Of a stretch of 64,000 nt of DNA, positions 7,440-39,079 are shown piece after piece (position 1 is the stretch's first letter; every line of letters starts with the position of its first letter). A model generated the notes under the pieces. It saw nothing but the letters and a program-made list of their open reading frames with translations, had not been told where the DNA came from and did not search any database. A program made the position numbers and the translations under genes. This DNA is from an uncultured Chloroflexia bacterium (lineage in GTDB: Bacteria > Chloroflexota > Anaerolineae > CG2-30-64-16), in contig CAWEMM010000012.1 of NCBI GenBank assembly GCA_963810095.1, forward strand, positions 544,001-608,000, written 5' to 3'.

Positions 7440-7461
7440 CTACGTATAATTAATGGAGAAT

Positions 7462-11397: not shown

Positions 11398-12285
11398 ATG
11401 CACGTACGCGAGATCGAGGCGAAGACCTTGCTCTCTGCCTGCGCGAAGCCCGATCCATGGTTCGGGATCAAGTACACGATGAACCTGTATCGGGGCTGCG
11501 GGCATCACTGCATCTACTGCGACAGCCGCAGCGAGTGCTACCAGATCGCGGACTTCGACGGCGAGGTGCTGGTCAAAGCGAACGCGCTGGAGTTGCTGAA
11601 GAAGGAACTGCCGCGAAAGCGCGTGAAAGGCTACGTCAGCACTGGATCGATGAACGATCCGTACCAGCCGCTCGAACGGGTGCGCGGCTTGACGCGCGGC
11701 GCGCTCGAGATCGTCGCGGCCCATCGCTTTCCCGTCCATATTATCACCAAGGGCGACCTCGTCGTGCGCGATGTCGACCTGTTGTGTGCGATCCGCGACG
11801 CAACGGGGCCACGCGGCGCGGTCGTCAGTTTTACCATTACGACGCCCGACGACGACCTCTCGCGAAGACTGGAGCCGGGCGCGCCGGCGTCGTCGGCCCG
11901 GTTTGCCGCCTTGGCAGCACTTGCCGCGCGCGGCCTTTGGGCCGGCGTCACCCTGATGCCCGTGCTGCCCTTGATCGAGGATGACGAGGAGAGCGTGCGG
12001 CGGCTCGTGGAGCGTGCCGCAGGGTGTGGAGCGAAGTATGTGATTCCGGCCTGGGGGCTGACGTTGCGGAACCGACAGCGCACGTACTATTACCAGCAAC
12101 TGGACCGGCTGTTTCCAGGGCTACGGGAAAAGTATGAGCGTGCATACCGGGAGCGGTACTCGGCCGGCTCGCCGAACGCGCGCCGGCTCGAAAGAGTTTT
12201 CGACGGGCTGGCCTCGGGCCATCGTCTCGAACGATGCGTACCTCCGTACCAACCCCCTGAGGCGGAGCAACTCGCCCTGTTCTGA
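11398..12285 (+). CDS. Radical SAM protein (SplB/Rv2578c-like)
   Basis: NLYRGCGHHCIYCD CxxxCxxC motif; DPYQPLE. Confidence 0.88.
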   Translation: MHVREIEAKTLLSACAKPDPWFGIKYTMNLYRGCGHHCIYCDSRSECYQIADFDGEVLVKANALELLKKELPRKRVKGYVSTGSMNDPYQPLERVRGLTRGALEIVAAHRFPVHIITKGDLVVRDVDLLCAIRDATGPRGAVVSFTITTPDDDLSRRLEPGAPASSARFAALAALAARGLWAGVTLMPVLPLIEDDEESVRRLVERAAGCGAKYVIPAWGLTLRNRQRTYYYQQLDRLFPGLREKYERAYRERYSAGSPNARRLERVFDGLASGHRLERCVPPYQPPEAEQLALF

Positions 12286-13296
12286 CCCGCCAGCGCGGGC
12301 CTGAAGTCCGGTCGGGTTCAGGTCGCCCGAGCGTGCCGATCGCGCTCGCCGGCTCCGCCGCGCCGACCGCTGGTATTCGTCGAAGGCCACGGCCCCCAGG
12401 AGAATCAGCCCGCGCACGACGAACTGTGCGTAGATGCCCCAGCCGGCAAGCTGCATCCCATTGCCCAAGATCGCCAGCACGAACACGCCGGCCACGAGCG
12501 CAGGCACGTTGCCCTCGCCGCCCATGAAGCTAACCCCGCCCAGGATCGCGGCCGTCAGTGCCGTGAACTCCGTCCCCGGCCCGAAGGACGAGTGCGTCGT
12601 GTTTGCCTTGGAGACCATCACCATCGTTGCCACGGCGGTGAGGAAACCGCAGACCGTGTACGTGGAAATCTTGAGGAACTTGGTGTTCATCCCCGCAAGT
12701 CGCGACGCTTCTTCGTTGCCGCCCAGTCCGACGATCCGCAGCCCATAGACCGTTTGGTAGTATACAAGGCTCGCAACGACAACCACCGCGAGTGCCAGGA
12801 TTACGTCCAGCGGGACGCCAAGCACCTGGCCCTTCGTGATCACGAGAAACTGCTCAGGGTAGTTGCGGTACGTCTTGGATTGGCTGAGCATGTACGAGAT
12901 GCCCTGGAAGATGACAGCAGTGCCAAGCGTCGCAATAAGTGGGAAGATCTTCAGCCGAGTCACGATCAGGCCATTGACCAAGCCCAGAATCGTGCCCAGA
13001 ATCAGCCCGAGCAGGACCGCAGCCCACGGCGGCACGCCGTATACCGTCATCGCCATCGCGGTGACCACGCCGACAAGCGACATTTGGTAGCCGACCGACA
13101 AGTCCACGCCGCCGCCGATCATGACGAACGACAGCGCAACCGCCACGATTACGAAGTAGGTATTCTGCGTGACGATGTTGGTGAGGTTCCGGACCGTCAG
13201 GAAGTAGGGGCTGGAGAACGAAAACAGGGCCACCAGCGCGAACAGCACGAGCATGATGGCGTATTTTTGGAGGCCGCTGATTCTCGAATTCGACAT
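12121..13296 (-). CDS. Sugar ABC transporter permease (RbsC-like); the C-terminal tail is probably read-through from an indel (true stop likely near 12318)
   Basis: GGGVDLSVG, GGNEEASRLAG, AAILGGVSFMGGEG. Confidence 0.85.
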   Translation of the reverse strand: MSNSRISGLQKYAIMLVLFALVALFSFSSPYFLTVRNLTNIVTQNTYFVIVAVALSFVMIGGGVDLSVGYQMSLVGVVTAMAMTVYGVPPWAAVLLGLILGTILGLVNGLIVTRLKIFPLIATLGTAVIFQGISYMLSQSKTYRNYPEQFLVITKGQVLGVPLDVILALAVVVVASLVYYQTVYGLRIVGLGGNEEASRLAGMNTKFLKISTYTVCGFLTAVATMVMVSKANTTHSSFGPGTEFTALTAAILGGVSFMGGEGNVPALVAGVFVLAILGNGMQLAGWGIYAQFVVRGLILLGAVAFDEYQRSARRSRRARSARSGDLNPTGLQARAGGSEQGELLRLRGLVRRYASFETMARGQPVENSFEPARVRRAGRVPLPVCTLILFP

Positions 13297-13309
13297 ATTT
13301 CGGCGCGCC

Positions 13310-14100
13310 TTATCCAAATGACCGGTACTGGACTTCGGGTGCAGGGGTCCCGTTCTGGTCCTTGCCCTTGACGATCATCGTCACGACGTCGTCAAGGGTT
13401 ACCTTGCTCACGTCCATCACGTCCTGACGCTGGCCGCCTTTGAGGACGAAGACCCGATCGGCGATAGCGAGAACATCCGGGATCCGCTGCGTGATGAGCA
13501 GGACCGACAAACCGCGGTTTCGCAGGTCACGGATGAGCCCAAGCAGCTTGTTGGCCTCAGTAACTCCTAGGGCTGCAGTGGGCTCATCCATGATGAGGAT
13601 CTTGGAATCAAAGGCAATCGCGCGGGCGCATGCCACCATCTGTCGCTGACCGCCCGACATTCGCGCTGACGCTCATCCTGGGCGACTTAATGTCCACGCG
13701 GCAGTTCTTTGATCAGTTCCTCGGCCCGCCTGTACAGAGTCCGCTTGTCCAGAAACATCCCCAGCGGCCCGCGTGTACACTCTCGACCGATGAAGATGTT
13801 CCGGGCGACGTCAAGGTTGTTGAAGAGGGCGAGATCCTGGTAGATCATCGCGATCCCCATCCGGGCCGCATCCTGTGGGTTACGGATGTGCGCGACTTGC
13901 CCATCGATCAGAATGCTCCCCTCGTCGGGCAGGTGCGCGCCGGAGAGAACCTTCATCAGGGTCGACTTGCCGGCGCCGTTGTCGCCGACAAGCCCCATGA
14001 TTTCCCCCCGGCGCAGCTCCAGGTTCACATCCGCCAGCGCGCGCACGCCGCCGAAGCTTTTGCAGATGCTGCGCATCTCAACGACGTAGTCTGATTGCAT
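13310..14100 (-). CDS. Sugar ABC transporter ATP-binding protein (frameshift near 13700)
   Basis: [10 protein letters not shown] in one frame; [19 protein letters not shown] in the other. Confidence 0.88.
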
Positions 14101-14148
14101 TGTGCCATCCAAGTGCGGCGCTCGATCCAAGTAGCTGTGGGCGCCCGC

Positions 14149-15369
14149 TCAGGGCGTTCCGCTGACGACGCCAGAGTTGGCGACCGGCTTCACATCCAGT
14201 TTGCCGTCTACCGCAGTCGCCAGAGCAAGCGGGTCCCAAGTGACCTCCGAAAAGGGCTCGCCGCTCAGGATCTTTTTGGCAATCGCAACGGTGGAGCCCG
14301 GCAGATCGCCGCCGCCGAAGGCCACCGCGCCCCTAAACGCGCCCTTGCCCTGGGCCGCCTCCATAATCGCGTCGCCTTCTGGCCCGAACATCCCGACGCC
14401 GAAGACTGCAACCTTGCTCAGGTCCTTGATTGCGCTGGCAGAACCCTTGGCAACCTCGTCCACGATCGCCTTCGAGGCGCCATTTCCGCCGTCAGACGCG
14501 TAGGCGACCACAAGTTTGACGTTCGGGTTGGTCGTGAGGACATTCTGCATCGCTGTCTGGCCCGCCTGAAACATCTCAGCGCTGGGGGTCTGCACGATCT
14601 TGACTGCCGGGCTATACACCGGGTTGGCGACCCGGTCTGCGTCGCCTTTGCCAGCGAGATAGTTCCCCTTCGCATCGGAGATCGCGACGCCCATTTTGTC
14701 GATCAGTTCGCCGGCCGAGTTTTTCAAGTAAGGTTCGCTGATCATCAACAGGCCGTTGGAGCGTTCGACCGCCTCGGGATTGAGCGACGAGAGAAAGACG
14801 ACGGTCTCGATCGAGCCGGGCGCGGCATCGGGATAGGTTTGCTCGACCCATCGCTTCGCCATCAGCGCAGCATACTCGCCTGCCAGGAACTGGTCCATCT
14901 TCATGACGGCGTCGCGGCCCGACTGCCCCGGCTCACCTCCGGCAACCATCACTTTGACCCCCGCCTTGCGAGCGGCCTCAAGCTTCGGCAGCAGGCTGCT
15001 GGCTTCAGCCGCCATGGCGAAGAGCAACTTGGGTTTCATGGCCGTGAAGTTCTCGACCTGGGTCGCCTGAGTGTTCGGGTTACCGTCCGCACTAGCTGTC
15101 TGGACGTCGTACTCGTTGCCGAACTCCTTGACGAACGCGTCGCGGAGCGCCAGCATCAGAGGGTTATCCATGGCAGGCAGCGCCACCGCAAGGAGCGGCT
15201 TACCCGTGTTCTCGGGCGGCACAGTTGCCGCCGGCGCCTCTTTCGCGGGTGCGGTTGTCGCCGCTGGTTGGGCCGGCGCGGGTGCTGCGGGCGGAGCCCC
15301 TGTGCACCCGGCAAGTAGGATCAGAATGCCGAGCAGCGCGAGGGTGAGCGTGAGGGACAGACGGTTCAT
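14149..15369 (-). CDS. Sugar-type ABC substrate-binding lipoprotein (type I PBP)
   Basis: Lipobox LAGC, PA/T linker, ALPAMDNP, SADGNPNTQATQVE. Confidence 0.85.
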   Translation of the reverse strand: MNRLSLTLTLALLGILILLAGCTGAPPAAPAPAQPAATTAPAKEAPAATVPPENTGKPLLAVALPAMDNPLMLALRDAFVKEFGNEYDVQTASADGNPNTQATQVENFTAMKPKLLFAMAAEASSLLPKLEAARKAGVKVMVAGGEPGQSGRDAVMKMDQFLAGEYAALMAKRWVEQTYPDAAPGSIETVVFLSSLNPEAVERSNGLLMISEPYLKNSAGELIDKMGVAISDAKGNYLAGKGDADRVANPVYSPAVKIVQTPSAEMFQAGQTAMQNVLTTNPNVKLVVAYASDGGNGASKAIVDEVAKGSASAIKDLSKVAVFGVGMFGPEGDAIMEAAQGKGAFRGAVAFGGGDLPGSTVAIAKKILSGEPFSEVTWDPLALATAVDGKLDVKPVANSGVVSGTP

Positions 15370-15477
15370 CGTTCTTCTCCTTCCGATTGGTAGCCATCAT
15401 CGGCATAACCGGCATCATACCAGGGAGAATGTTCGAGCTGGCAGAACTGCCGCACTTGTCTTGTTGGACGAAATCTT

Positions 15478-15528
15478 GTCTTATGATATGATACGACGCA
15501 TCATAGCACGGGTCACCGCGCTTGTCAA
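15478..15528 (-). promoter_or_regulatory. Sigma70 promoter of ABC operon 1 with 17-bp operator
   Basis: Minus strand TTGACA(15528-15523)-N17-TATGAT with extended TG; operator GTCTTATGATATGATAC at 15478-15494. Confidence 0.75.
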
Positions 15529-15621
15529 TAGTTTCACGAAGGCTCGTGGCGCCGGCGAAGCATCGGAGGGCAAGGGCGCGAAACAAACAGGCGTAAACTA
15601 GGTCGTAGATCAAACGTGTAG

Positions 15622-15642
15622 TACGATATCACATAGTGAAAC
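15622..15642 (+). promoter_or_regulatory. 17-bp operator upstream of iclR-type gene (probable autoregulation)
   Basis: ATATCACATAGTGAAAC at 15626-15642, overlapping -10-like TACGAT. Confidence 0.6.
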
Positions 15643-15694
15643 GATTTCCGGCCGGACAGCCTTCGGGCCCAGCAGTTGAGCAAGGAATGCCAGC

Positions 15695-16468
15695 GTGAAC
15701 AGAGATCCGAACGAATACAACGTGCGTGCGATCGAGCGCGCCCTCCAGATCCTGGAGTGCTTTGACGACGAGCATCCTGCGCGGGGCGTTTCGGAAATTG
15801 CCGAAGCGGTTGGCCTCCACAAGGCAACCACCCACCGCCTGATCACGACGCTGGCCAATCACGGCTATCTCGAGCGCCTCCCCGGCGAGCAGCATTACCG
15901 CCTCGGCATGCAATTGGCGACGCTGGGCTTGTCGATCCTGCGCGGCATGGATCTGCGCCGGGAGGCCGTGCCCTACATCGCGAACGTCGTGGCGCGCTGC
16001 GAGGAGACGTGCGACATGAGCGTGCTCGACCGGGGCGAGGCGTTGATCGTCGAGGTGATCCGCAGCCGGCACGTTCTCGCCATGGCGACGAGCGTCGGGC
16101 AGCGGCTCCCCCTGCACGCGACCGCCGGCGGCAAGGTGTTCCTCGCGTTTGCCCCCGAAGAGGAACGGGAGGCGCTGCTGGGGCGGCCGCTCAAGCGCTA
16201 CACGCCGAAGACGATCACGGACCCCGAGGTACTGCGCGAGGAAGCGGCGCGCTTCCTCGCGCAAGGGTATGCGTTTGACGACGAGGAATTCGAGGTGGGC
16301 GTGCGTGCGATCGCCGCACCCGTGCGGAATGCGCTCGACCAGGTCACGGCTGCGGTGAGTATGCCCGGACCGGTCACGCGCATCACGCCGGATCGCATCG
16401 CGGAAATCGGGCAGGCGATGATGGAGACGGCCAATGCGATCTCGCAGCGCCTGGGCTGGCGTGCCTAA
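15695..16468 (+). CDS. IclR family transcriptional regulator
   Basis: AIERALQILECF, GLHKATTHRL HTH; PLHATAGGK, GYAFDDEE, AIAAPV. Confidence 0.93.
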   Translation: MNRDPNEYNVRAIERALQILECFDDEHPARGVSEIAEAVGLHKATTHRLITTLANHGYLERLPGEQHYRLGMQLATLGLSILRGMDLRREAVPYIANVVARCEETCDMSVLDRGEALIVEVIRSRHVLAMATSVGQRLPLHATAGGKVFLAFAPEEEREALLGRPLKRYTPKTITDPEVLREEAARFLAQGYAFDDEEFEVGVRAIAAPVRNALDQVTAAVSMPGPVTRITPDRIAEIGQAMMETANAISQRLGWRA

Positions 16469-16491
16469 CCGTCTATCCTGCCAAGCAACAC

Positions 16492-16527
16492 AGACGCCCG
16501 ACAGCACTTGCCGGGCGTCTACTTTTT
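16492..16527 (+). terminator. Intrinsic terminator after iclR-type gene
   Basis: AGACGCCCG...CGGGCGTCT followed by ACTTTTT. Confidence 0.6.
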
Positions 16528-16903
16528 ATCCAGCCGCGGCGGTCGGGATGTTGTGCTCTGACTGCATGACGCCTTCACGGAACTCCTGCACGTCCACCGA
16601 AAGCGAGAGGTAGCCCGTCGCGTACCGTTCGCCCAGCGTCTCTTTGAGCGCGCCGAAGACCCGGGCGGCGATCTCCTGCTGCACTTCGTGCGGCCGGCCC
16701 GCCTTGATCCACAGGGTGACATGGGCGAAAGCGTAGTCCGGGTTGCCGTCGCCCACGCGATACTCCGTCAGGCGAACCGCCCGGCTCTTGATAGCATTCT
16801 GCTTGATTGCGCCGGTTGCGGCCAGCTCCGCGTGCAGCCGGCCCAGCAGGGCCTGCACGTCGAAGACCAGGTTATCGGTATATTCCAGGGTCAGTTGTGG
16901 CAT
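16526..16903 (-). CDS. 5-carboxymethyl-2-hydroxymuconate isomerase (CHMI/HpcD)-like tautomerase
   Basis: Catalytic Pro-1 (MPQLTLEYTDNL), IKSRA, FAHVTL, GR, C-terminal HN. Confidence 0.85.
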   Translation of the reverse strand: MPQLTLEYTDNLVFDVQALLGRLHAELAATGAIKQNAIKSRAVRLTEYRVGDGNPDYAFAHVTLWIKAGRPHEVQQEIAARVFGALKETLGERYATGYLSLSVDVQEFREGVMQSEHNIPTAAAG

Positions 16904-16941
16904 GATGCACCTCTTCGAGGTGAATGACCTCGTCTGGCCGC

Positions 16942-17898
16942 CTATTCTACCCGCGGGGTCCCGTGCTCGTGAAACGACGCGATCGTCTGCAAGCCCCAGG
17001 CCTGGCCCTTCTTGCGCTCGGCCTCGCTCCAGACCACTGCCGGCCAATCGGGCGCAAGGATCAGGCGGGCGCCTGCGTTCGCAACCTCGAAGCGATTCCC
17101 GCCCGGCTCATACAGGTATAGAAAGAAGGTCTGCTGGATGGCGTGCTTGTGCGGCCCGGTCTCGATGTGGACGCCGTGCTCCAGGCAGATGTCCGCCGCT
17201 CGCAGCACCTCTTCGCGGCTGTCCACCGCATACGTCACATGATGAAGCCTGCCGTGCGCGCCGTAACGGTCTTCGGCAATGGCCACGTCATACGACTTGT
17301 TGCATACCGTCAGCCACGCGCCCTTCTCAGATCCGTCGTCGAAGATGATCTGCTCGGTCAGCCGGCAGCCGAGCGCGTCCTGCATGAAGGCACGATTCGC
17401 GGCGACGTCTGCCGCCAGCAAGTTGATGTGGTCGATCCGGCGGACGTTCGCCCCCCGCCCCGGGAAACGCGAGGCCTGGTTCTTCAGCGCGGGGCGCAGC
17501 TCGGCCGGCGCCTGGTACCACTCGGTCTCGTAGTAGATCTGGAGGTGGTGGCCGTCGGGGTCACGGAACTCGTAGGCCGGACCGTGCCCCAGTTCGCCGT
17601 CGGTCCAGCCGGCGCCGAGGCCCGTGCGCTCGACCGCCGCGACGCGGCGCTCGAGGGCAGCCTGGCTCGTCGCGCGGAACGCGTAGTGCCCCAGCCCGGG
17701 CTGTTTGGCGGCGGTGAGCTTAAGCGTGTGATGCTCGTAATCGTCCCACCCGCGCAGGTAGACCGAATCGCCCTGGCGGCCGCTCTCGACCATGCCCATA
17801 ATGTCTTTGAAGAAATGCAGGCTCTCGTCGGGCAGGGGCGTCAGCATCTCGACGTGCGCCAGGTGTGCGAGATCATATATGGGTTCAGCACCGGCCAT
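16942..17898 (-). CDS. Catechol 2,3-dioxygenase-type (VOC family) extradiol dioxygenase
   Basis: LAHVEMLTP, RIDHINL, LHHVTY, GPHKHAIQQTFFLYLYEPGGNRFE. Confidence 0.9.
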   Translation of the reverse strand: MAGAEPIYDLAHLAHVEMLTPLPDESLHFFKDIMGMVESGRQGDSVYLRGWDDYEHHTLKLTAAKQPGLGHYAFRATSQAALERRVAAVERTGLGAGWTDGELGHGPAYEFRDPDGHHLQIYYETEWYQAPAELRPALKNQASRFPGRGANVRRIDHINLLAADVAANRAFMQDALGCRLTEQIIFDDGSEKGAWLTVCNKSYDVAIAEDRYGAHGRLHHVTYAVDSREEVLRAADICLEHGVHIETGPHKHAIQQTFFLYLYEPGGNRFEVANAGARLILAPDWPAVVWSEAERKKGQAWGLQTIASFHEHGTPRVE

Positions 17899-17899
17899 C

Positions 17900-18541
17900 T
17901 TATCCTCCCCGGTTGCTCTCGACCACTGCCCGCAGACCGTGAACGTCGTAGGTCTGCGCACCGTCGAGCAAGCGTCCCCGCAGCGCATCTTCGCGCGCAC
18001 TGCGGGCGGCAGCGGCTTCGAGCACTTCCGTCGTGCGGGCGGCGGGAACACACACCGCCCCGTCCGCATCCAAAACGAGCAGGTCGCCTGGCGAAATGCG
18101 CATCCCGCCCACGGTCACCGGCACGTCCAGCCCGCCCACGATGTCCTTCGTTGCACCTTTGACCCGCACGTAGCGCGCCCAAATGGGCAGGCCGACGCGC
18201 GCCAGTTCGTCGTAGTCGCGAATGGCTGCGTCGACCAGCACGCCGGCCGCATGCCGCACGCGCACCTGGATCGCGAGCAGCTCGCCCATGAGCGCCACGG
18301 GCCGCGGCTCAGGCATGGTCAGCACCACGATGTCGCCGGGCTCGATCCGCTCGATTGCCGCGTGGACCATCAGGTTGTCGTCCTGGCCGCACGCGACCGT
18401 CCGTGCCGGCCCGGCAACCGAGCTCTGCGGCACGACCTGGATCAGAGGGACGTCGATGAGCCCTTCCCGGCCGCCGGCTTCATACACCGTCGCGACGCCG
18501 AGCGCCGCGAACCGGCTGCACATCTCTTTATCTACAGGCAT
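17900..18541 (-). CDS. galC: 4-carboxy-4-hydroxy-2-oxoadipate (HMG/CHA) aldolase, RraA family
   Basis: GVATVYEA, AGPARTV, DDNLMVHAA, MGELLA, DAAIRD, PGDLLVLDADGAV. Confidence 0.85.
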   Translation of the reverse strand: MPVDKEMCSRFAALGVATVYEAGGREGLIDVPLIQVVPQSSVAGPARTVACGQDDNLMVHAAIERIEPGDIVVLTMPEPRPVALMGELLAIQVRVRHAAGVLVDAAIRDYDELARVGLPIWARYVRVKGATKDIVGGLDVPVTVGGMRISPGDLLVLDADGAVCVPAARTTEVLEAAAARSAREDALRGRLLDGAQTYDVHGLRAVVESNRGG

Positions 18542-19248
18542 GTCACCACCCAAGGCAGCGTCCGCTGCAGCGCTTCGGCGTAGCGAACCTCCTCGCGGCC
18601 GGCAATGCGTCGGGCATGGTTGCCGCGGCGTGCGGCCAGGTCCGTATAGTAGCTCTGCAAGTATGCCTGCGCCTTCATCGCGGCCATCGCCTCGACCTTG
18701 CGACTGAAGACAGGCGTGATGTCGAGAAACGTATTGGGCGTGAAGCCACACAGCTCGGGTTGGTGCGGCTCAAAATAGTAGAGGTCCGGGGGTGTAATCC
18801 GGTCGAAGGCGCTGGCCACGCCCGCGCCCGCAGCCAACAGCCGCGCTTTCTGCACCGCCTCACACGCGACGGGATGGTCGGGATTGAACGGGTCGACGGG
18901 GGTGTGCGTGAGCACGATCGTTGGCCGCCACTGCCGGAACAGCGCCACCAGCGCGTCGAGTGCCCCCCCATCCACGACGAGGGGGTAGTCGCCCAGGTCC
19001 AGGCAGCGGAACGACGCACCGACCGCGGCCGCGGCCGCCTCCGCTTCCGCGTGGCGGATCTGCTTGACGTTTTCGACCGTCTGGCCGGGCCGCTTCCACA
19101 GCTCGCCCGATTCGCCCCGCTCGCCGTACGAAAGCGCGACGACCTCGGCCAGCCCGCCTTGCGCCACGGTCACGGCTATTGCGCCCGCGGCCCGCCAGAC
19201 AAAATCCGCGGCGTGCGCGCCGATGACCAGCAAACGTTGTTCCGCCAA
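18532..19248 (-). CDS. galB: 4-oxalomesaconate hydratase, PIG-L/LmbE family
   Basis: GAHAADFVWRAAGAIA, LSYGERGESGELW, DPFNPDHP, FEPHQPELC; adjacent to CHA aldolase. Confidence 0.88.
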   Translation of the reverse strand: MAEQRLLVIGAHAADFVWRAAGAIAVTVAQGGLAEVVALSYGERGESGELWKRPGQTVENVKQIRHAEAEAAAAAVGASFRCLDLGDYPLVVDGGALDALVALFRQWRPTIVLTHTPVDPFNPDHPVACEAVQKARLLAAGAGVASAFDRITPPDLYYFEPHQPELCGFTPNTFLDITPVFSRKVEAMAAMKAQAYLQSYYTDLAARRGNHARRIAGREEVRYAEALQRTLPWVVTCL

Positions 19249-19269
19249 GGCGTCCTCCTCGCAGGGCGA

Positions 19270-19320
19270 AAAAACCAGGTTTCTGCGCCAGCTTCGCTAG
19301 CGTGGAGAAACCTGGTTTCT
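19270..19320. repeat. Family B repeat: two AGAAACCNGGTTTCT palindromes with a 21-bp spacer
   Basis: AAAAACCAGGTTTCT-GCGCCAGCTTCGCTAGCGTGG-AGAAACCTGGTTTCT; inverted copy at 40819-40869. Confidence 0.8.
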
Positions 19321-19323
19321 GGA

Positions 19324-20245
19324 CTATTGTGCGACCGTCTTCCGGCAGCCATCCAGGAAGTCCAGCACCCGGGCGACATTCTCGGGCGTCTCGAAGGCCG
19401 GGTCCGCGTGGCCCGCGCCTTCGAGCAGTTCCAGGGTGACCGGGACGCCCGGCGGCTTCGAGTTTGGCGGCCAGGTTGACGGACTGCTGAACCGGGACGA
19501 TGGCATCCTGCGTGCCGTGCTGGAGGAGGAAGGGCGGCAGTCCGGCCCGCACATAGCTCTCGGGGTTCGCCCGCGCCACCAGCTCGGGGGCCTCGGTGAT
19601 GGTGTGGCCCAGCAGCAGCGATTCGGGCGAGTGCGGCTCGTCGTGTCGCAGGCCGGGCGGCGGCAGCAGGCCGCTTTCGGCAAGCTGCGCGTCCATCTTG
19701 AGGAAATCGGTCGGGCCGAACCAGGCCACTACCGCCTGCACGGCTGAGCTTTCCCCGCCGTGGCCCAGGTTCGCGTCCTCCAGCTCGGCCACTCCGCCGG
19801 AAACGCCGGCCATGGTCGCCTGCCACCCGCCCGCCGAGCCGCCCCACGCGGCGATCCAACGCGGGTCCAGACCGTACTCGGCCGCGTGCCCGCGGAGCCA
19901 GCGGATCGCGGCTTTCAGATCCTGGATCAGCGCGGGGAATTTTGCCTCGCCGCTCAGCCGGTAGTTGACCGCGGCCACGGCATACCCCCGCTTCAGGCCC
20001 TCGAGCATGGGCAACACCTGCACGTCGCCCTTGTCGCAGCCCATGAAGGCGCCGCCGTGGATCGACAGGACTACGGGGAATGGACCCGGCCCCTGGTCGG
20101 GCAGGTACAGGTCCAACCGCTGTGCGGTTGACAGGGGCGCGTACTGCAGGTCGATGAACTTCCGCTTGATGTAGCGGGTATCGGCGGGGGGCGGTGGCTC
20201 TGGCACCGCGTAATGTTCGCCTCGGTCCTGGCTGTTTGGGATCAT
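19324..20245 (-). CDS. Alpha/beta hydrolase esterase (BD-FAE/Aes-like), frameshift near 19455
   Basis: LDLYLP, IHGGAF, NYRLS, WGGSAGG, HGTQDAIVP, GAGHAD. Confidence 0.85.
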
Positions 20246-20294
20246 ATGGCTGCCTGTCTGCTGTCACGGGCGCTGTGGACGCAATATCAGGATC

Positions 20295-21299
20295 TCACGC
20301 CGAGACCCTCGCGACGGTCTCCTTGGCCTTCCGGTTCTTCTGGTAGGTATCGAAGCCGACCGCGGCCAGAAGGACAACACCTTTCACGACGTTCTGTGAG
20401 AAATCAGGGAAACTGGCAAGCTGCATGGCGTTGTTGAGCACGCCGATGATGAGCACGCCCGTTATGAGGCCGAAGATCGACCCTTCACCCCCGATGAAGC
20501 TGACACCGCCCAGCAGCGCAGCCGTCAGGCAGTCGAACTCAATGCCGGCACCCGTCGAGACCTGGCCGGCAAAAACCCGCGACAGCAGCAGGATCGAGGT
20601 GATGGCGGATGCGAAGCCGCAAATCGCAAACAGCATCAGCTTCATGCGGTTGGTGTTCACGCCCGCAAGGCGGGCCGCTTCGGCGTTGCCGCCCAGCGCA
20701 AAGGTAAACCGCCCGAAGTACGTCTTCACGAGCACGAAGTTGGCGATCAAAGCCACGATAATCATGACCACAATGGGCACCGGGATCGGACCCAGGTAGC
20801 CCTGGCCGAAGAACCGGAAGACATTCGGGAAGCCCATGATGTTTCTGGAGTTGGCGATGATGTACCCGACGCCCTTGTAAATCGACGCGGTGCCCAGCGT
20901 CACGATCAACGGGTGAACTTTCAGCTTAATCGAGAGCAGCCCATTCACCGCGCCCAGTGCCGTCCCCAACACCAGAATCAGCGGGATGGCGACGCCAAGC
21001 GGAACTTTGGCGTAGGCGAGCATGATGGACAAGACGATGTTGGTGAGAATGATCTGCGACCCGATGGAGAGGTCAATGGCCCCGCCGACCATCACGAACA
21101 TCAGACCCACCGCGCTGATCGCGACGAAGGAGACCTGCCGGACCAGGATGACGAGGTTATAGGGTGTCAGGAAATTGGGCGAGATGATGGAGAAGAGGAT
21201 CACGAGGCCCAGCAGGATCATCTGTGGGGCGAATTTTTGCAGGCGCGTGCCGATGCCAACGCCCGTTCTGGAAACAGGTACGCTCTGGCTATTCATCAT
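20295..21299 (-). CDS. Sugar ABC transporter permease
   Basis: GGAIDLSIG, GGNAEAARLAG, AALLGGVSFIGGEG. Confidence 0.9.
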   Translation of the reverse strand: MMNSQSVPVSRTGVGIGTRLQKFAPQMILLGLVILFSIISPNFLTPYNLVILVRQVSFVAISAVGLMFVMVGGAIDLSIGSQIILTNIVLSIMLAYAKVPLGVAIPLILVLGTALGAVNGLLSIKLKVHPLIVTLGTASIYKGVGYIIANSRNIMGFPNVFRFFGQGYLGPIPVPIVVMIIVALIANFVLVKTYFGRFTFALGGNAEAARLAGVNTNRMKLMLFAICGFASAITSILLLSRVFAGQVSTGAGIEFDCLTAALLGGVSFIGGEGSIFGLITGVLIIGVLNNAMQLASFPDFSQNVVKGVVLLAAVGFDTYQKNRKAKETVARVSA

Positions 21300-21306
21300 G
21301 CGGCTC

Positions 21307-22795
21307 CTAATGTACGCCCGACGCGAGGTCGAGAATATGATCCTGGCTGAACTCCGCCCGGGTTACCTCGCCGGCCAGCCGGCCTTCACACAGCACGATG
21401 ATCCTGTCTGACATGCCGAGCAACTCCTCCATGTCGGACGAAATCATCAGGATCGCGATCCCGCTGTTGGCTAACTCGCACATGAGGTTGTAGATTTCCT
21501 GCTTAGCGCCGACGTCGATGCCGCGGGTGGGCTCGTCAAAGATCAGTATGCTGGAGTCGGCGGCGAGGGCCTTGGCCAGAACCACCTTCTGCTGGTTCCC
21601 GCCGCTCAGGTTGATCACCCGCTGCAACAGGCTTGGCGTCTTGATGTTGATCCGCTGTCTGTACTTCTCGGCGATCTCGTTCTCGGCCCGCGTATCGACG
21701 ACGCCGCGCTTGGAGAGCCTGCGGACGATCGGAAAGCTGATGTTCCACCCCACGCCCATTTCGAGGAAGAGCCCTTGCCCCTTGCGGTCTTCAGTCAGCA
21801 GCCCGATGCCATTCTGCATGGCATCTTGGGGCGACCGGAGCCGTACCGGCTTGCCGCCGACGAGTATTTCGCCGCTCTCGGCCGGCACCGCGCCGAACAG
21901 CAGCATGGCCAGCTCGGTCCTTCCTGCGCCGACCAGGCCCGAGATTCCCAAGATCTCGCCCTTGCGGACCGAGAAAGAGATATCACGGTCGCCGTTGCCC
22001 GTGAGGCTGCGCACCTCGAGCGCCACCTCGCCCGGCGCGGCTGCCCGCTGCGGGTAAGTCTCCTTCAGTTCGCGGCCCACCATCAGGCCGATCAGTTCCT
22101 TGCGATTGGTGTCCTGCGTCAGCCTGGTCGCCACGTACCTTCCGTCGCGCAAGACGGACACCCGATCGGAGATCCGGAAGACTTCCTCAAGCCGGTGCGA
22201 AATGTAGATCACAGTCACCCCGTCCTGCTTGAGGCGCCGTGATGATTTCAAACATGTGCTCCACTTCCGAAACCGAAAGCGGTGCGCTCGGCTCGTCCAT
22301 GATCAGGATCCTGACGTTCTTGGACACGGCCTTGGCGATTTCGACGATCTGCTGTTTCGCCGGCGGCAGATCCCGAACGAGGGCATCCGGATCGATATCG
22401 ACGTTGAAGAGCTTGAATAGCTCGCGTGTTTTGCTCTTCATGGTCGCGTAATCGACCAGCGCGGATTTGCTCACCCGGTCGCCCAGAAAAATGTTCTCGG
22501 CAACCGACATGGTGGGCACGAGGTTAAATTCCTGGTAGATGACCTCGATCCCCAGGCTCCTGGAGAGGTGCGGGGTCATGTTCGGGCATTCGTGCCCGTT
22601 CACGGTGATGAGCCCGCCGTCGAGACCAATCGCGCCCGCAACGGCCTTGATGAGCGTGGACTTGCCCGCGCCGTTTTCGCCCAGCAACGCGTGGACTTCG
22701 CCCGCCACGAAGCCAAGCGAGACGCGATCGAGGGCTAACACGCCGGGGTACTTCTTGGTGATATCTTTGAGAGAGAGAACGACATCGGCATTCAT
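21307..22795 (-). CDS. Sugar ABC transporter ATP-binding protein (RbsA-like, two NBDs), frameshift near 22240
   Basis: [18 protein letters not shown]; [29 protein letters not shown]. Confidence 0.9.
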
Positions 22796-22822
22796 GTGCG
22801 CAGCAGCCTCGGTGGTGGCCTT

Positions 22823-22894
22823 CAACACAAAGACACAAAGGCATCACTTGAAGCAGGTAGGCTTCAGTGCTTGTGCCCTTGTGTCTTTGGGTTG
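22823..22894. repeat. Family A palindromic repeat
   Basis: CAACACAAAGACACAAAGGCA ... CTTGTGCCCTTGTGTCTTTGGGTTG. Confidence 0.75.
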
Positions 22895-22902
22895 CAAACA
22901 GC

Positions 22903-23960
22903 CTACTTGACTTCGCAGAAGATCGGCTCCAACACGTCGTTGGTGATCTTCGGGTATTCGACGCCCTGCATGACCTTCTTCAGCAGATCGTAGGTCACCT
23001 GGTCAAGGTTCGTGCCGCCGATGGCGACGAGGCCCTTGTACGGGTCCTTGCAGCTCTTGACGGTCTCGATCATGGTCGGATCCATGTCGCCCGCAAAGAC
23101 GGCGTACTTCGAGATGTCGACGTTCGGCAAGGCCTTGATGGTCTGGGCAACGCCCTGCGCATGCGCGCTGGACGACGCCAGGATGACCTTGACGTTCGGA
23201 TGCGCGGTCAGGATGTTCTCGGCCGTGCTGGCTCCGATTTGCATGCCCTCAGTCGAGATATCGACGAACTGCACCATGTTGGCCTTGGGGCAGCTTTTCG
23301 GCGATGGTGCGCATGCCCTGGGCCCGCAGCTTCATCTGCAGGTCGCCCGACTCGTTGCCGATAATGGCCACGTCGACACTTTTCTCCTTGGCGTCGGGGA
23401 ACGTCTTGGTGATGAAGTCGCATGCCATCTGGGCCATCTTGGTGCCGTCTTCGAGTTGGTCGGTGTGCATGATCGCGTCAAAGGGCTTCAGTTCCCCAGG
23501 CGGGACGCCGATGACCTTAATGCCCTTCTTTTGGGCTTCTTCGACGGCGGGCAGCACGTTCTCGATGGAGCCCGGAGCCATGACGATCATCGCCTTAATG
23601 CCCATCGAGATGCAGTTCTCGATCTGGGCATACTGTTGGGTTGCCCCGCCGTCGTCGGCGCCGAAGACGGACACTTCAACGCCGTCGGCCGCCGCCTTGG
23701 CCTTGACCGAATTGGCCAGGTTGTTGAGGAAGGTGTTGGACAGCGCAGGAATCAGGTAGCAGGCCTTCTGCCCCTTGATGTCGGCGCTGGGGCCGGCGGC
23801 TGCAGCAGGCGCTTGGGTGGGTTCGGGGGCCTTGGTGGGCTCGGCCACGGGGGCCTGGGTGGGCGCCGCGGCGGGAGCCGCGGTCGGAGCGGGTGCAGCA
23901 CAACCCGCGAGGAGCGCAAGTGTGAGGACGACCAGTACGACCGTGTACAGTGGTCTTCAT
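22903..23960 (-). CDS. Sugar ABC substrate-binding lipoprotein (about two frameshifts)
   Basis: LLAGC lipobox, PTKAPEPTQAP linker, LSNTFLNNL, AENILTAHPNVK spread over three frames. Confidence 0.82.
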
Positions 23961-24486: not shown

Positions 24487-25451
24487 TCAAGGCGGATAGG
24501 CGACGGTATAGAGGTGTTTCCCACCGTTCAGGGGGCCCTTCAGCAGGGCTTCAATCTCGGCCGGGTCGCGCATGGTCATCTTTTCCGCGGGCGGCAGGCA
24601 GCCGGCCGGGAAACGGGTCATGATGTCGCCGATGAATTTGACCAGCAGTCGAGCAGCACTTCCAGGCCGGGGTACGCCTTGTTGGCGTCGGCGAGCGTCG
24701 GCCGGCCGATGACGCCCTCAGGGTACACCGCGACCTCGATCCCGCTGCCGCCGATGTGCTCGTGCCCCTTGATCGGCGCGTGCATGATCTCGCCGCCCTT
24801 GTCGATGTAGCCGGCGGGCAGGAAGCCTTCGCCCTTGGTGTCGACCGCGTTCTCCATCGTCATGAACTCGGGGAACAGGGCCAGCGAATAGGACGCTTCG
24901 ACCTCGCACGCGTGTTGGAACGGGGTCTCGAACGGCCCGCCGTGCGTCTTGTCCTTCAGATAATCGTGGATCACTGTGGGCCAGTGGACCGAAAACAGCA
25001 TGGCCGGCACCTGGTACTTCTTCGCCAATTGGTGCAGCGCGAGCGGGATGACCTCTTCCTGGCCGTGACCGTTCAGAAAGATCTGCTTGCGGAAGCCGGC
25101 ATTCCAGAAGCCCGCGATGACCGCACGCAGGTTGGCGAGGAAGGGGTCCTCGGGAATGACGACGGTGCCGGGCATGCCCAGGTGGTTGTACGGGTGCGAG
25201 CCGTACCAGATCGGCTCGGCCACCGTGCAGCCGGTCTTCTGCGCGACCATCTCGGCCATCCGCGTGACGAGGAAGGTGTCCTCGCCGAACGGCTGCGCGT
25301 CGCCGTGACACTCGGTGCTGCCGACCGGAATGATGATCAGGTCGTTCGTTTGCAGCCGCTCGCGCAACTGCTTGACGTTCATGGTCTGGTAGTAGATGCC
25401 GTCGGGCCGTTCCATGTGACCGCCCGCGGGCGGCAGCTGCCAGTTCCCCAT
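24487..25451 (-). CDS. iolN: Creatininase-family hydrolase, close to 3-dehydro-scyllo-inosose hydrolase (frameshift near 24645)
   Basis: IIIPVGSTECHG, EDTFLVTRMAE, NGHGQE, HACEVE; tail DIMTRFPAGCLPP in a shifted frame; resembles Thermotoga IolN as recalled. Confidence 0.78.
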
Positions 25452-25484
25452 GCGCTCACTCCTCTCAGTCAGCCAGGCGTTGCA

Positions 25485-25572
25485 CCAGCCAGACACAAAG
25501 ACCCACTAAGCACGGGGGATAGGTTCGAAGCTGTCCCTGGTGACGCCTTGTGCCTGTGCCTGGTCCTGTGTT
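25485..25572. repeat. Degenerate family A repeat
   Basis: AGACACAAAGACCCAC ... CCTTGTGCCTGTGCCTGGTCCTGTGTT. Confidence 0.5.
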
Positions 25573-25580
25573 AGACCGGC

Positions 25581-26496
25581 CTAGATCTGCGGGATGTGCA
25601 GGTCGCTGGCGAACGCCTTGGACTGGGTCAGGTTCGGATAGTAGCAGTTCAGCATCTCGACGATGATTGCGGCCTGGGCGGCCATCTTCTTGCCCTCGGC
25701 GGCCGACGTCATCTCGCCGTGCCCGCTGACGACCGAGTTGCCGGTCTTGCAGTGCAGCGGCGCAGCCACCCGGACGATTTCGGGCGCTTCGTAGGTGCGG
25801 ATGAAGCCGCCGGAGCCGGGCGGGTTGTCCGTGTGGATATCGAGCGGGACCTTGACGGCCGCGCGCAGGGCGGCATGCATGGGGATTTGCAGGTCGCGCA
25901 CCGGGTTGATGCTGTCCGCGCCCAGGCTCTCCAACAGCTTGAAGGAGGCCGGGTTGCAGTGGCCGAGGTGCGCCGAGGTCTTGAAGGTAATGTCGGCGGG
26001 CAGCGCGCCGTCCTTGCGCATCTGGCCCACGACCCACAACATGCCCTCATCATAGATCAGGAAGCCGCGCACGCCGCAATCGTAGCCGCGCTTGATATCC
26101 TCGATCGCCCGCAGGAGCTGTTCCATGCCGCGCAACCGGTAGCTGATGCGGACGCCCTGCTGCGAGAGCACCGGTCGCGCCCGTGTCGTACGTGGCGCGA
26201 GGGCCGACCGACATGAGGAGTTCCGCACCGTACGCGTTGCACAGCTTGCAGTACTCGTGGAGTTCCTGCCGGGTGTGGCGGAACATGCCGTAGGTCTCGG
26301 TCACGCGGTTGATCGTGATGCCCAGTTTCAAGGACGTCTCCAGCAGGGCCTCAACCGCCTCGGACGAGTTGACCGTCGGCACTTCGATGCGGAAGGCAGC
26401 ACCGTCGGGGAAGCGCAGGGCCGAGCTCGGCATGTCGTAGCAATCGCCGGACGGCAAGCCCAGCTTCTTCATGTACTCGCGGGTTTCTTCAAACAT
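25581..26496 (-). CDS. U32-peptidase-like TIM-barrel protein of unknown function (frameshift near 26175)
   Basis: RFPDGAAFRIEVP, GVRGFLIYDEG, SAHLGHCNP, LGADSINP, PLDIHTD. Confidence 0.7.
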
Positions 26497-26539
26497 GGTT
26501 TTGCTCCTGGTGATGCGCCACCGTTCGGTGGCAATGGTG

Positions 26540-26902
26540 CTATTTGCAGTGGGCCGGCAGTGGGGGGCAGTAAGCCCACACGATGCGCAACGGCTCGTCG
26601 CCGATGTTCTCGACGCGATGCTTCTTGCCAAGAGGCGAGTAAAAGGCCGTCTCGGGGCCGATTTCCCACTCACCCTCGCCGTCGATCACGATCTTTGCGC
26701 GGCCACTGATGAGGAACAGGACTTCCTCCGATTCCTCGTGCATGTGGTCCGGAATCATGCTGCCGACCTCGGTGATGTTCATCCCCATCGAGACGTTCTG
26801 GACCCCCCCGAACTTGGGGGCGAGCAACAGCTTGGAGACGCGCGGTGGGATGCGGTGCTCCCCCTCCACATCGGCGGCTCTGACGAATGGTGGTTTTTCC
26901 AC
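26540..26902 (-). CDS. Cupin domain protein
   Basis: HMHEESEEVLFLISG ... PLGKKHRVENIG. Confidence 0.85.
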   Translation of the reverse strand: MEKPPFVRAADVEGEHRIPPRVSKLLLAPKFGGVQNVSMGMNITEVGSMIPDHMHEESEEVLFLISGRAKIVIDGEGEWEIGPETAFYSPLGKKHRVENIGDEPLRIVWAYCPPLPAHCK

Positions 26903-26943
26903 GGTATCCCCTCTCCTATGTGACTGATCTTGGAAACCCTTTT

Positions 26944-28087
26944 CTAAACGGCTGCGTCTTTTACAGCCCCGTCCCGGCCGTGCTCACGCCCAGGAGGGCG
27001 TGCTACGCCCACGAGGTTCGCCACCGCGGCCAGGTCTGCCTGCACCTTGGGCGGGAGCAATACGCCATCGCGCTCGACGCGCTGCGTGCTCTCATATTCT
27101 TTCTCGCCCGCGGTGTAGATCGCGCGCTTCGCTCGGGGCGCGGCGGGAGGCGCGCAGCTCGCGGGTGATGCCGCCGGCAATGCGCTTGAAGACCGGCAGC
27201 GGGACGAAGTGCTCGATGTCGATCGCCATGAAGAAATGGCCGATGCGCAGGAACTGGGGCTTGCCCTCGGCGTCGAAGTCGACGAGACCCGAGAGATAAG
27301 TGCCGTCTTGAAACGCCGCTGAGAAGATCTCGACAATGGTCGCCAGGCCGTAGCCCTTGTAGCCGGCCATCAGCTCGCCCATGCCGCCCAGCGGCAGCAG
27401 CGCGGCAGTCTCGGCCGCAAGATCGGCAATGAGCGTCTCGCTGTTGGTTGCGGGCGTGCCGTCCTGCTGGATGACCCAGCCCTCGGGGATCGGCTTGCCG
27501 GCCCGCGCCAGGACCTCGATGCGGCCGCGCGGGGTGATGGAGGTCGCGGCATCGTACAAAAAGGGAAACGGCTCGTCGGTCGGTGCGGCCACGGCGATGG
27601 GGTTCGTGCCCAGCATCGGCTGCACGCCGAAGGTGGGCGCAATCGAGGGATGTGCGTTCGTGAAGCTGAGCCCGACCATGCCGGCCCTGACCGCCATGAG
27701 GGTGTAGTAACCCGCAACGCCGTAGTGGCTGGAGTTGCGCACTGCGACCGCGCCCAGCCCGAACTTCCGCGCCTTCTCGATTGCCAACTGCATCGCATGG
27801 TGACCCAGCACCATACCCATGCCGTTGTTGCCGTCAATGACGGCGGTCGTCTCGGTGTCTTTCACAATGTCGGGGCAACTGGCGGGGAGCTGGAGACCTT
27901 GCTGGATGCGGTCGTAGTACATCTTGAGGTGCGCGACGCCGTGCGACTTAACACCCCAGAGGTCGGCCGTTATGAGGACATCGGCGGTAATCTTCGCATC
28001 TTCCGGGGGCAGCCCCATCCCCTCCAAGCAATCGACCATGAAGGCGGTCAGGACAGGCACGGGAATCTGGATGGTCTCGTTGGACAT
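26944..28087 (-). CDS. Ldh_2 (malate/L-lactate dehydrogenase type 2, AllD/ComC-like) oxidoreductase, frameshift near C-terminus
   Basis: ADLWGVKSHG, VRNSSHYG, GTNPIA, GYKGYGL. Confidence 0.88.
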
Positions 28088-39008: not shown

Positions 39009-39079
39009 AATCCATCACGGCCGGCCTGTCGGGGCGAAGAATCCCGGCAGGCCGGCGGTGTCCATCCCCACGAGGCAAC

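Follow-up and report, generated by a model that had tools for sequence, protein, structure and literature searches.

The window analysed here, a stretch of 64,000 nucleotides (nt) with a G+C content of about 65%, belongs to the genome of an uncultured Chloroflexia bacterium (assembly GCA_963810095.1; 6.13 Mb on 16 contigs, 88.5% complete), in which it sits on contig C12 (CAWEMM010000012.1, positions 544,001 to 608,000 of the forward strand). Because the G+C content is high, genes were chosen by codon-position G+C combined with family matches. Gene calls and Pfam matches placed five co-oriented genes on the minus strand between 20245 and 16526, encoding an esterase, GalB, GalC, an extradiol dioxygenase of the VOC fold and a small protein related to 5-carboxymethyl-2-hydroxymuconate isomerase (CHMI; Table 1). 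The five genes are packed as an operon, with gaps of 76 nt between the esterase gene and galB, 1 nt between galC and the dioxygenase gene and 38 nt between the dioxygenase and CHMI-like genes, and with a 10-nt overlap of galB and galC. The co-oriented, tightly packed gene set that had been noticed from the letters alone (the sequence-only reading) was thus borne out, with overlaps or gaps of at most 76 nt throughout. A scan of the window for promoters and terminators gave match counts similar to those in shuffled sequence. Inspection by eye revealed a GC-rich inverted repeat directly after the stop codon of the CHMI-like gene, without a T tail.

Table 1. Genes of the operon and neighbouring features in the window.
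Feature	Coordinates	Strand	Supporting match
CHMI-like protein, 125 aa	16526..16903	-	PF02962, 91.4 bits
VOC (type I) two-domain extradiol dioxygenase, 318 aa	16942..17898	-	TIGR03211, 343.9 bits (cut-off 320.2)
GalC-like 4-carboxy-4-hydroxy-2-oxoadipate aldolase, 213 aa	17900..18541	-	PF03737, 115 bits; PDB 3noj
GalB, PIG-L-fold 4-oxalomesaconate/2-keto-4-carboxy-3-hexenedioate (KCH) hydratase, 238 aa, TTG start	18532..19248	-	PDB 5cgz; PF02585, 69.3 bits
BD-FAE alpha/beta-hydrolase esterase, cytoplasmic, one frameshift	19325..20245	-	PF20434, 211 bits
CUT2 sugar-type ABC transporter	20295..23848	-	Pfam Peripla_BP_4, ABC_tran, BPD_transp_2
IclR-family regulator	15695..16468	+	IclR_C, 155.9 bits
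Second CUT2 ABC transporter	12121..15369	-	Pfam
Subtype-B tannase, 620 aa	28650..30512	+	NF041556, 323.8 bits (cut-off 300)

The dioxygenase passes the profile named 'catechol 2,3-dioxygenase' (TIGR03211), and its 120 closest proteins, which are 72-91% identical, carry this name in public annotation. Altogether, 7978 relatives were found at E <= 0.001 among 8000 scored candidates. Pfam matched Glyoxalase/VOC families only, and no LigB (class III) fold was recognised. An AlphaFold model (pLDDT 93.2) predicts the two-domain VOC fold, with Foldseek TM values of 0.94 to AphC 7q2a and 3lm4 and of 0.85 to XylE 1mpy. In a 32-sequence alignment, the metal triad H157, H220 and E271 as well as H252 and Y261 were invariant; they align with XylE H153, H214, E265, H246 and Y255, which we take to be the metal triad and the conserved His and Tyr of that enzyme.

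A single position sets this protein and its closest relatives apart. Tyr203 occupies the place of XylE His199, which we take to be equivalent to His200 of homoprotocatechuate dioxygenase (HPCD), and the protein thus lacks the second-sphere acid-base histidine. To our knowledge, this histidine is needed in all extradiol dioxygenases studied. At the same position Tyr was present in 15/15 in-clade rows, and His in 16/16 outgroup rows and in XylE. The surrounding motif NK[S/T/G]Y[D/E] was shared by all 15 in-clade rows and recurred in PDB 9wgj and in proteins of Agrobacterium, Thermus and Nonomuraea. Phylogenetic analysis united the Tyr-bearing sequences in one monophyletic branch with a support of 100/98. 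A natural clade of this kind offers a direct test of the role of the histidine in O2 activation.

Both enzymes encoded directly upstream have recognisable counterparts in gallate catabolism. Residues 6-235 of the 238 of GalB aligned with Pseudomonas putida GalB, a 4-oxalomesaconate hydratase (PDB 5cgz, E 7.4e-60), including the stretches AHxADF, GERGES and DHP, which were identical or nearly so and which we take to be catalytic. The GalC-like protein matched the HMG/CHA aldolase PDB 3noj (E 1.3e-36), where CHA stands for 4-carboxy-4-hydroxy-2-oxoadipate, with its 'VDAAIRD' aligned to 'VDAGVRD'. It has the RraA-like fold (PF03737) and an Arg-Asp pair that we take to belong to the active site. 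The neighbourhood of the dioxygenase comprises GalB, GalC and the CHMI-like protein rather than genes of a meta-cleavage pathway, and no aldehyde dehydrogenase is encoded on the contig.

This association is not confined to the window. In several phyla, GalB and GalC are encoded next to dioxygenase orthologues with 60-78% identity. When the 80 best genome loci for a relative (64-78% identity) were inspected, 45 had GalB and/or GalC within 7 kb of the dioxygenase gene, and 36 had both. Five genomes without such a close link were searched further, and all five still carry a GalB, 76-77% identical to that of Bradyrhizobium (locus L018), at a distance of about 18-27 kb from the dioxygenase by coordinates if both are assumed to lie on the same contig. 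As a separate observation, 23 of the 80 loci, mostly from Bradyrhizobium, have only a HerA-like gene and the dioxygenase gene adjacent to each other; four of the five genomes tested for GalB come from this group. A gene with NAD_binding_2 and DUF1932 domains also recurs by gal-type clusters in several phyla (14/80 genome loci and, in addition, L103 and L104), and a DUF1932 gene is annotated on Agrobacterium and Roseomonas plasmids as well.

Furthermore, a genuine PrpF-type tautomerase lies beside GalB, GalC and the dioxygenase in Acidobacteriota, Alphaproteobacteria and Actinomycetota. The order dioxygenase-GalB-GalC-PrpF was seen in Terriglobales (L063), in Enterovirga (L065) and in L057 and L058, while Nonomuraea (Actinomycetota) has the order GalB, GalC, PrpF, dioxygenase. 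In L063, PrpF passes the 4-oxalomesaconate tautomerase equivalog (527 vs 440 bits) and GalC passes TIGR02798 (329.6 vs 304.5 bits). A PrpF of this specificity in the same cluster implies that the shared intermediate is 4-oxalomesaconate. On a pAt plasmid of Agrobacterium tumefaciens from walnut (L162), the PGAP annotation lists in order PIG-L, VOC, CHA aldolase, 4-oxalomesaconate tautomerase, tannase, alpha/beta hydrolase and a sugar ABC transporter. We consider it probable that the window dioxygenase would likewise yield 4-oxalomesaconate from gallate. The sequence-only reading had proposed the VOC enzyme as a gallate dioxygenase, and comparative genomics supports this through the linkage of the clade with GalB, GalC and bona fide PrpF proteins. 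Clade members about 60% identical to the window protein are encoded on conjugative pAt-type plasmids of A. tumefaciens (walnut) and A. vitis (grapevine), whose hosts are rich in tannins (L162; H18-H25, H38-H51, H62-H63). At L162, the only Agrobacterium locus that was opened, tannase and carboxylesterase genes adjoin the dioxygenase gene.

The last gene of the operon encodes a protein of the CHMI fold that matches PF02962 over profile positions 1-120 of 124 and aligns with PDB 1otg and 4jcu from the first residue. Proline directly follows the initiator methionine, and this Met-Pro start is invariant in 40 members of its subfamily. The candidate isomerase thus belongs to PF02962 and does not have the PrpF fold of GalD and LigU; at 59.9 bits it also falls far below the cut-off of 215 for the HpaF equivalog NF011605. 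A homoprotocatechuate pathway was dropped from consideration given this score and the lack of Hpa genes. CHMI and 4-oxalocrotonate tautomerase use the N-terminal proline for an analogous shift from dienol or 2-oxo-4-ene to 2-oxo-3-ene on muconate-type diacids. The subfamily is tight: of 79 protein clusters found, 40 were aligned, with identities of 51-79% and a mean column identity of 77%.

Its genomic linkage is equally narrow. A CHMI-centred scan of metagenome contigs yielded 80 loci, of which 67 were informative (300 bp or more of upstream sequence). In all but one of these 67, the gene immediately upstream encodes the clade dioxygenase (66/67); the exception is L132, where 3.6 kb of upstream sequence contains neither a dioxygenase gene nor galB or galC. 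GalC is also present upstream in 16 of the 17 loci with at least 2 kb of upstream sequence, and GalB in 12 of the 13 with at least 2.7 kb, whereas PrpF was found in none of the 80 loci. In the reciprocal, dioxygenase-centred set the CHMI-like gene was present in 10 of the 80 genome loci, whose labels were without exception Anaerolineae, Anaerolineales or Chloroflexia; four loci had PrpF, and no locus had both (0/80). Such complementary occurrence is the pattern expected if the CHMI-like protein does the job of GalD. Our estimate, at somewhat better than even odds, is that the CHMI-like protein would be the isomerase standing in for GalD. The linkage in 66/67 loci and the mutual exclusion with PrpF support the view, already put forward in the sequence-only reading, that the Pro-1 protein may serve as an analogous 4-oxalomesaconate tautomerase. 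The CHMI-like gene was not found in 400 other sampled genomes of the same phylum, which indicates a sporadic distribution of the cluster.

The canonical enzymes for both steps are missing well beyond the window. The lack of a LigAB/GalA-type dioxygenase, a PrpF-type GalD and a semialdehyde dehydrogenase, originally noted for the window, holds genome- or contig-wide: PrpF (PF04303) had zero matches in the whole genome (88.5% complete), and none of its 10 aldehyde dehydrogenase matches lies on contig C12. A single LigB-family match was obtained, on contig C9, and corresponds to a YgiD-type 4,5-DOPA dioxygenase (NF007914, 280 bits). This protein was rejected as a hidden GalA, as it is encoded on another contig, has only 279 aa and passes the DOPA-dioxygenase equivalog. 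Moreover, LigB-family genes were absent from four of five other genomes carrying the cluster.

The esterase gene at the head of the operon is present as the sequence-only reading had it, but not as one clean open reading frame (ORF), since its last ~40 residues lie in another frame. Three-frame reading traced this to a single insertion or deletion near 19445-19450, which shifts the C-terminus including the catalytic-His motif GAGH; intact orthologues comprise 302-314 aa. Besides the esterase gene, three transporter genes are split by frameshifts: those for the first transporter's binding protein and ATPase and that for the second transporter's ATPase. Of the three ORF pairs that lie from 13310 to 23848, each consists of two pieces with a match to one and the same protein family. 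Overlapping same-strand ORF pairs were seen across the window, at 7453-9178, 13310-14130, 21307-22828, 22903-23848, 37628-40234, 48422-50441 and 56323-57788, among others. So many pairs, resembling frequent single-base frameshifts, suggest an indel-prone assembly over widespread gene decay, and an error-prone assembly is the favoured explanation. A comparison of the esterase frameshift with reads returned a best run containing 0.26 of the words of the stretch, and public contigs gave no cover at 19421-19674. Of the 19 CHMI-type loci with enough DNA, 6 have an esterase orthologue as the gene immediately upstream of galB and 13 have none; it was also absent from the four PrpF-type genome loci L057, L058, L063 and L065. 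This implies that the core operon works without the esterase, which is an accessory member of the cluster.

About 8 kb from the operon, the window encodes a tannase that passes the equivalog NF041556. It matches PDB 6yq4 (E 7e-53) as well as 3wa6 and 4j0c, with its 'GTSGGG' aligned to the Ser motif 'GTSAGG', and judged by eye it begins with a hydrophobic, signal-peptide-like N-terminus, MKSSKVVTLVLSIVLLLTLLPSMVGA. The tannase is the likely source of gallate. Tannase homologues were also detected downstream of the CHMI-like gene in L118 and L130, that is, in 2 of the 21 loci with at least 2.5 kb of downstream sequence, and in L123 at the contig end. Two ATP-binding cassette (ABC) transporters flank the operon. 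The first consists of a binding protein (23848-22903) and an ATPase (22828-21307), each in two overlapping ORFs, and a permease (21299-20295) most like AraH and RbsC; homologues with 63-80% identity lie beside the cluster in L006, L012, L014, L124, L128, L153 and L155. The second is composed of a binding protein (15369-14149), two ATPase pieces (14130-13687 and 13660-13310) and a permease (13317-12121). Homologues of its binding protein (56-63% identical) are encoded downstream of the CHMI-like gene in 5 of the 21 loci (L082, L109, L124, L144 and L153). An IclR gene, convergent with the end of the operon, is likely its regulator; IclR genes 33-38% identical to it are placed likewise in L002, L014, L073, L142, L151, L160 and L161.

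Four further minus-strand genes (24618-28087) separate the tannase gene from the first ABC transporter. One of them passes the IolN 3-dehydro-scyllo-inosose hydrolase equivalog (441 vs 245 bits), and the remaining three encode a small cupin, a dehydrogenase of the Ldh_2 family and an unassigned protein of 215 aa. These genes may handle the polyol core of tannins or belong to an unrelated inositol route. L086 has an Ldh_2 homologue close to its CHMI-like gene, and in Nonomuraea (L164) a homologue of the cupin is next to the dioxygenase gene. Just after the tannase gene lies a nitroreductase-family gene (30836-31519); in L014 of Anaerolineales, downstream of the CHMI-like gene, the IclR gene has a 76%-identical homologue of it as neighbour. 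The window is best read as a tannin/galloyl-ester utilisation locus.

From this gene content the following route can be proposed. A secreted tannase, perhaps together with the cytoplasmic BD-FAE esterase, would release gallate from galloyl esters, and one or both of the sugar-type ABC transporters may take up gallate or small galloyl esters. The VOC dioxygenase, with H157, H220 and E271 as its 2-His-1-carboxylate site, would cut gallate between two hydroxylated carbons to give 4-oxalomesaconate. Since 4-oxalomesaconate would be formed directly, no dehydrogenase would be needed. The CHMI-like protein, with its N-terminal proline as general base, would then convert 4-oxalomesaconate or its enol, 4-carboxy-2-hydroxymuconate, to KCH, the reaction of GalD and LigU. 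GalB is predicted to hydrate KCH to CHA, which GalC would split into pyruvate and oxaloacetate. Judging from sequence comparison, we put the probability at roughly 0.6 that the five genes form a gallate ring-cleavage operon within a tannin/gallate-ester utilisation locus, with two steps carried out by enzymes unrelated to the textbook GalA and GalD.

A number of observations weigh against this interpretation. Neither GalB nor GalC was found within 7 kb of the dioxygenase gene in 35 of the 80 genome loci, and many loci with both show neither the CHMI-like gene nor PrpF nearby, implying that a dedicated isomerase may be dispensable. Three of nine operon genes (binding protein, ATPase and esterase) are frameshifted in this assembly, and both transporters are of the sugar type, with no known gallate-binding relative. 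GalC remains below its equivalog cut-offs (174.5 vs 179 bits for NF006731 and 163.9 vs 304.5 for TIGR02798) and is, as its sequence indicates, a divergent member of its family. Other contexts of the clade point elsewhere. In Bradyrhizobium (L018) the genes for a TetR regulator, a 171-aa membrane-like protein, GalB, GalC, a decarboxylase-like protein and the dioxygenase follow each other, with no PrpF or CHMI-like gene; the gene between GalC and the dioxygenase (6130-6990 in L018, and similar ones) resembles 4,5-dihydroxyphthalate decarboxylase (PDB 9jp7, E 5e-23). On plasmid pTHEOS01 of Thermus oshimai JL-2 (L163), a 68%-identical clade dioxygenase with the motif NKTYD is accompanied by a divergent aldehyde dehydrogenase gene, GntR, DUF6282, PIG-L, CHA aldolase and an NAD(P) oxidoreductase, with a 4-hydroxybenzoate 3-monooxygenase nearby, and the aldehyde dehydrogenase and monooxygenase suggest protocatechuate as the substrate there. 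On plasmid pRo-1 of Roseomonas gilardii (L165), the clade dioxygenase gene is translationally coupled to, and overlaps, an alpha/beta hydrolase gene. Its neighbours, a LigB-type (class III) dioxygenase, an amidohydrolase, DUF1932, CHA aldolase and VanA/VanB-like genes, point to a syringate/3-O-methylgallate setting with two ring-cleavage enzymes. Taken together, these three contexts indicate that the clade may accept several 3,4-dihydroxybenzoates, as LigAB does. For the Rhodococcus opacus enzyme AHK27425.1 discussed below, the available part of Cai et al. (Sci Adv 2021, PMC8442903) also describes cleavage of 4-methylcatechol, does not identify the product of gallate cleavage, and proposes 2,3-cleavage to a semialdehyde while leaving the pathway open. 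Within the literature reached, no assay of a Tyr-clade protein on gallate with identification of the product was found.

These points bear unequally on the alternatives. The esterase gene directly upstream of galB, here and in six of the related loci, would suit the syringate branch, in which the VOC enzyme would convert 3-O-methylgallate to the methyl ester CHMOD, the esterase would demethylate this to 4-carboxy-2-hydroxymuconate, the CHMI-like protein would tautomerise the latter and GalB and GalC would finish the route. The known CHMOD methylesterases MgaC and DesC are alpha/beta-fold hydrolases as well, the pathway of Pseudomonas sp. NGC7 runs, in the available part of the source, through a dioxygenase, an esterase, an isomerase and then GalD, GalB and GalC (PMC12314914), and the Roseomonas hydrolase gene overlaps the start of the clade dioxygenase gene beside VanAB-like O-demethylase genes. 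However, the window esterase is of the BD-FAE/Abhydrolase_3 type and not of the MenH type named for MgaC and DesC, most CHMI-type loci and the PrpF-type loci do without it, the 7.4-33.5 kb of the window that were scanned showed no O-demethylase gene close to the operon, and a tannase, which yields gallate, is present. We therefore regard 3-O-methylgallate as an unlikely substrate of the operon. Protocatechuate is quite improbable. It would be cleaved by the VOC enzyme in the 4,5-type manner to a semialdehyde, which a dehydrogenase encoded elsewhere would oxidise to 4-oxalomesaconate or its enol, with the remaining steps as proposed for gallate. The Thermus neighbourhood and the recurrent DUF1932 NAD-binding gene (14/80 loci) would fit such a scheme, but the contig has no aldehyde dehydrogenase gene, no DUF1932 homologue was seen in the scanned 7.4-33.5 kb, none of 90 CHMI-type loci has such a gene inside the operon (DUF1932 stands upstream in L004, L068, L103 and L104), and the tannase context favours gallate.

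A different outcome of the cleavage itself would leave the CHMI-like protein with a true 2-hydroxymuconate-type product, formed by 2,3-cleavage of gallate or from pyrogallol or 3,4,5-trihydroxyphenylacetate, and GalB and GalC with non-canonical substrates. By its Pfam and NCBIfam names, the CHMI family normally acts on 5-carboxymethyl-2-hydroxymuconate, GalC is divergent, and 2,3-cleavage is what Cai et al. drew (PMC8442903, available part). Set against this, in other phyla the clade occurs together with a canonical GalC and with a PrpF above the cut-off of the 4-oxalomesaconate tautomerase equivalog, genes for a decarboxylase, dehydrogenase or hydrolase that would serve a semialdehyde or muconate route are missing from the operon, and the score of the CHMI-like protein is far below the HpaF cut-off; this alternative, too, has little probability. 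As to an ordinary catechol 2,3-dioxygenase of a meta pathway that has come to lie beside gal genes by chance, the TIGR03211 score and the annotation of the closest proteins are what it would predict. Its probability is very slight, given the operon kept in 66/67 CHMI-centred loci and across several phyla, the lack of a semialdehyde dehydrogenase or hydrolase, and a clade devoid of the second-sphere His found in all 16 outgroup sequences and XylE. For the window itself, the substrate favoured is gallate, since the contig lacks an aldehyde dehydrogenase gene, no O-demethylase gene appeared in the scanned part, and a tannase is present. The tannase, the two ABC transporters, the esterase frameshift, the His-to-Tyr change, the Rhodococcus precedent and a possible role of the esterase in a 3-O-methylgallate route go beyond the sequence-only reading.

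Gallate is a monomer released from hydrolysable tannins and syringyl lignin, and its aerobic breakdown is taught as a pathway that starts with a LigB-type dioxygenase. If gallate is indeed the substrate, a large set of 'catechol 2,3-dioxygenase' genes would be tannin/gallate-pathway genes, carried by soil, sediment and plant-associated bacteria and also by Agrobacterium plasmids from walnut and grapevine, and metagenomic read-outs of 'aromatic pollutant degradation' would miscount them. The CHMI-like protein would in that case extend the tautomerase superfamily to a tricarboxylate substrate. For lignin valorisation, the dioxygenase gene would be a target to delete or to use in gallate-producing strains without GalA, as has been done empirically in R. 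opacus. In its widest form the proposal is evenly balanced: 'catechol 2,3-dioxygenases' with the motif NK[S/T/G]Y[D/E] would be widespread, mis-annotated VOC gallate (or gallate and protocatechuate) dioxygenases that substitute for GalA, DesB or LigAB in five or more phyla and have Tyr in place of His, and in the Chloroflexota-type branch a CHMI-fold enzyme would have been recruited as 4-oxalomesaconate isomerase, which would make two independent replacements by non-homologous enzymes within one four-step pathway.

The dioxygenase proposal has a precedent in R. opacus, where a 'catechol 2,3-dioxygenase' is required for gallate degradation. According to the available part of Cai et al. (PMC8442903), strain PD630 has no DesB or LigAB homologue, deleting the presumed catechol 2,3-dioxygenase AHK27425.1, a VOC-type enzyme, ends its consumption of gallate, and Escherichia coli expressing this enzyme removes gallate. 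The spacing of its reported iron ligands, His158, His221 and Glu272, is identical to that of H157, H220 and E271 in the window protein. The available part of that paper gives no link to GalB, GalC or GalD, whereas the window dioxygenase gene shares an operon with galB and galC. The closest solved relative of the window protein is PDB 9wgj (323 aa, E 7.7e-115), deposited as 'Catechol 1,2-dioxygenase' under a name that does not mention gallate, and a literature search returned no paper for it. It shares the motif NKSYD and the ligand spacing with the window protein, and its numbering would again give His158, His221 and Glu272. From the identical ligand spacing and the numbering of 9wgj we suspect that both 9wgj and AHK27425.1, the latter by residue numbering only, are members of the Tyr clade. 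No Rhodococcus name came up when the clusters of P0200, P0201 and P0216 were consulted. Literature searches, which left most subscription journals outside their reach, brought up no VOC dioxygenase tied to GalB, GalC or GalD, no mention of the Tyr and no CHMI-type 4-oxalomesaconate isomerase. The dioxygenase half thus has one experimental precedent, in R. opacus, and the tautomerase half appears to be new; the tautomerase replacement and the His-to-Tyr signature both appear undescribed in the searchable literature.

The gal cluster of P. putida KT2440 encodes related GalB and GalC proteins and, in the available part of the source, leads through the same intermediates as proposed here to the same end products, pyruvate and oxaloacetate: cleavage of gallate gives 4-oxalomesaconate, which GalD or LigU converts to KCH (PMC12314914). 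The enzymes of the first two steps differ in fold, as P. putida GalA is LigB-type and GalD PrpF-type, whereas the window has a VOC dioxygenase and an isomerase of the CHMI/tautomerase fold. Regulation and uptake differ as well, with the LysR-type GalR and the transporters GalT and GalP in P. putida and with IclR and ABC transporters in the window, which, unlike the P. putida cluster, has a tannase and an esterase attached. E. coli HpcD/HpaF (1otg) and 4jcu share Pfam family, length and N-terminal proline with the CHMI-like protein, and the reaction proposed for the window, a 1,3 keto-enol shift on a 2-hydroxymuconate-type acid, would be of the same type. In contrast to HpaF, the CHMI-like protein has no hpa neighbours (dehydrogenase, decarboxylase, hydratase, aldolase), and such proteins form a tight subfamily of their own behind the gal-linked dioxygenase.

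Also comparable are Pseudomonas sp. NGC7 and Sphingobium SYK-6. The syringate pathway of NGC7, as given in the available part of the source, runs through a dioxygenase (MgaAB), an esterase (MgaC) and an isomerase (MgaD) and then through GalD, GalB and GalC (PMC12314914). Like the window, NGC7 and SYK-6 (DesB, LigU, LigJ, LigK) bring GalB/GalC together with a dioxygenase, an esterase of the alpha/beta-hydrolase type and a small isomerase other than PrpF. Their dioxygenases are LigAB-type and GalD or LigU is still present, whereas the window has neither; in a further difference from these strains, no O-demethylase gene was seen in its scanned part. MgaD is SnoaL-like, which shows that proteins of unrelated folds have taken on isomerase steps around 4-oxalomesaconate in earlier cases.

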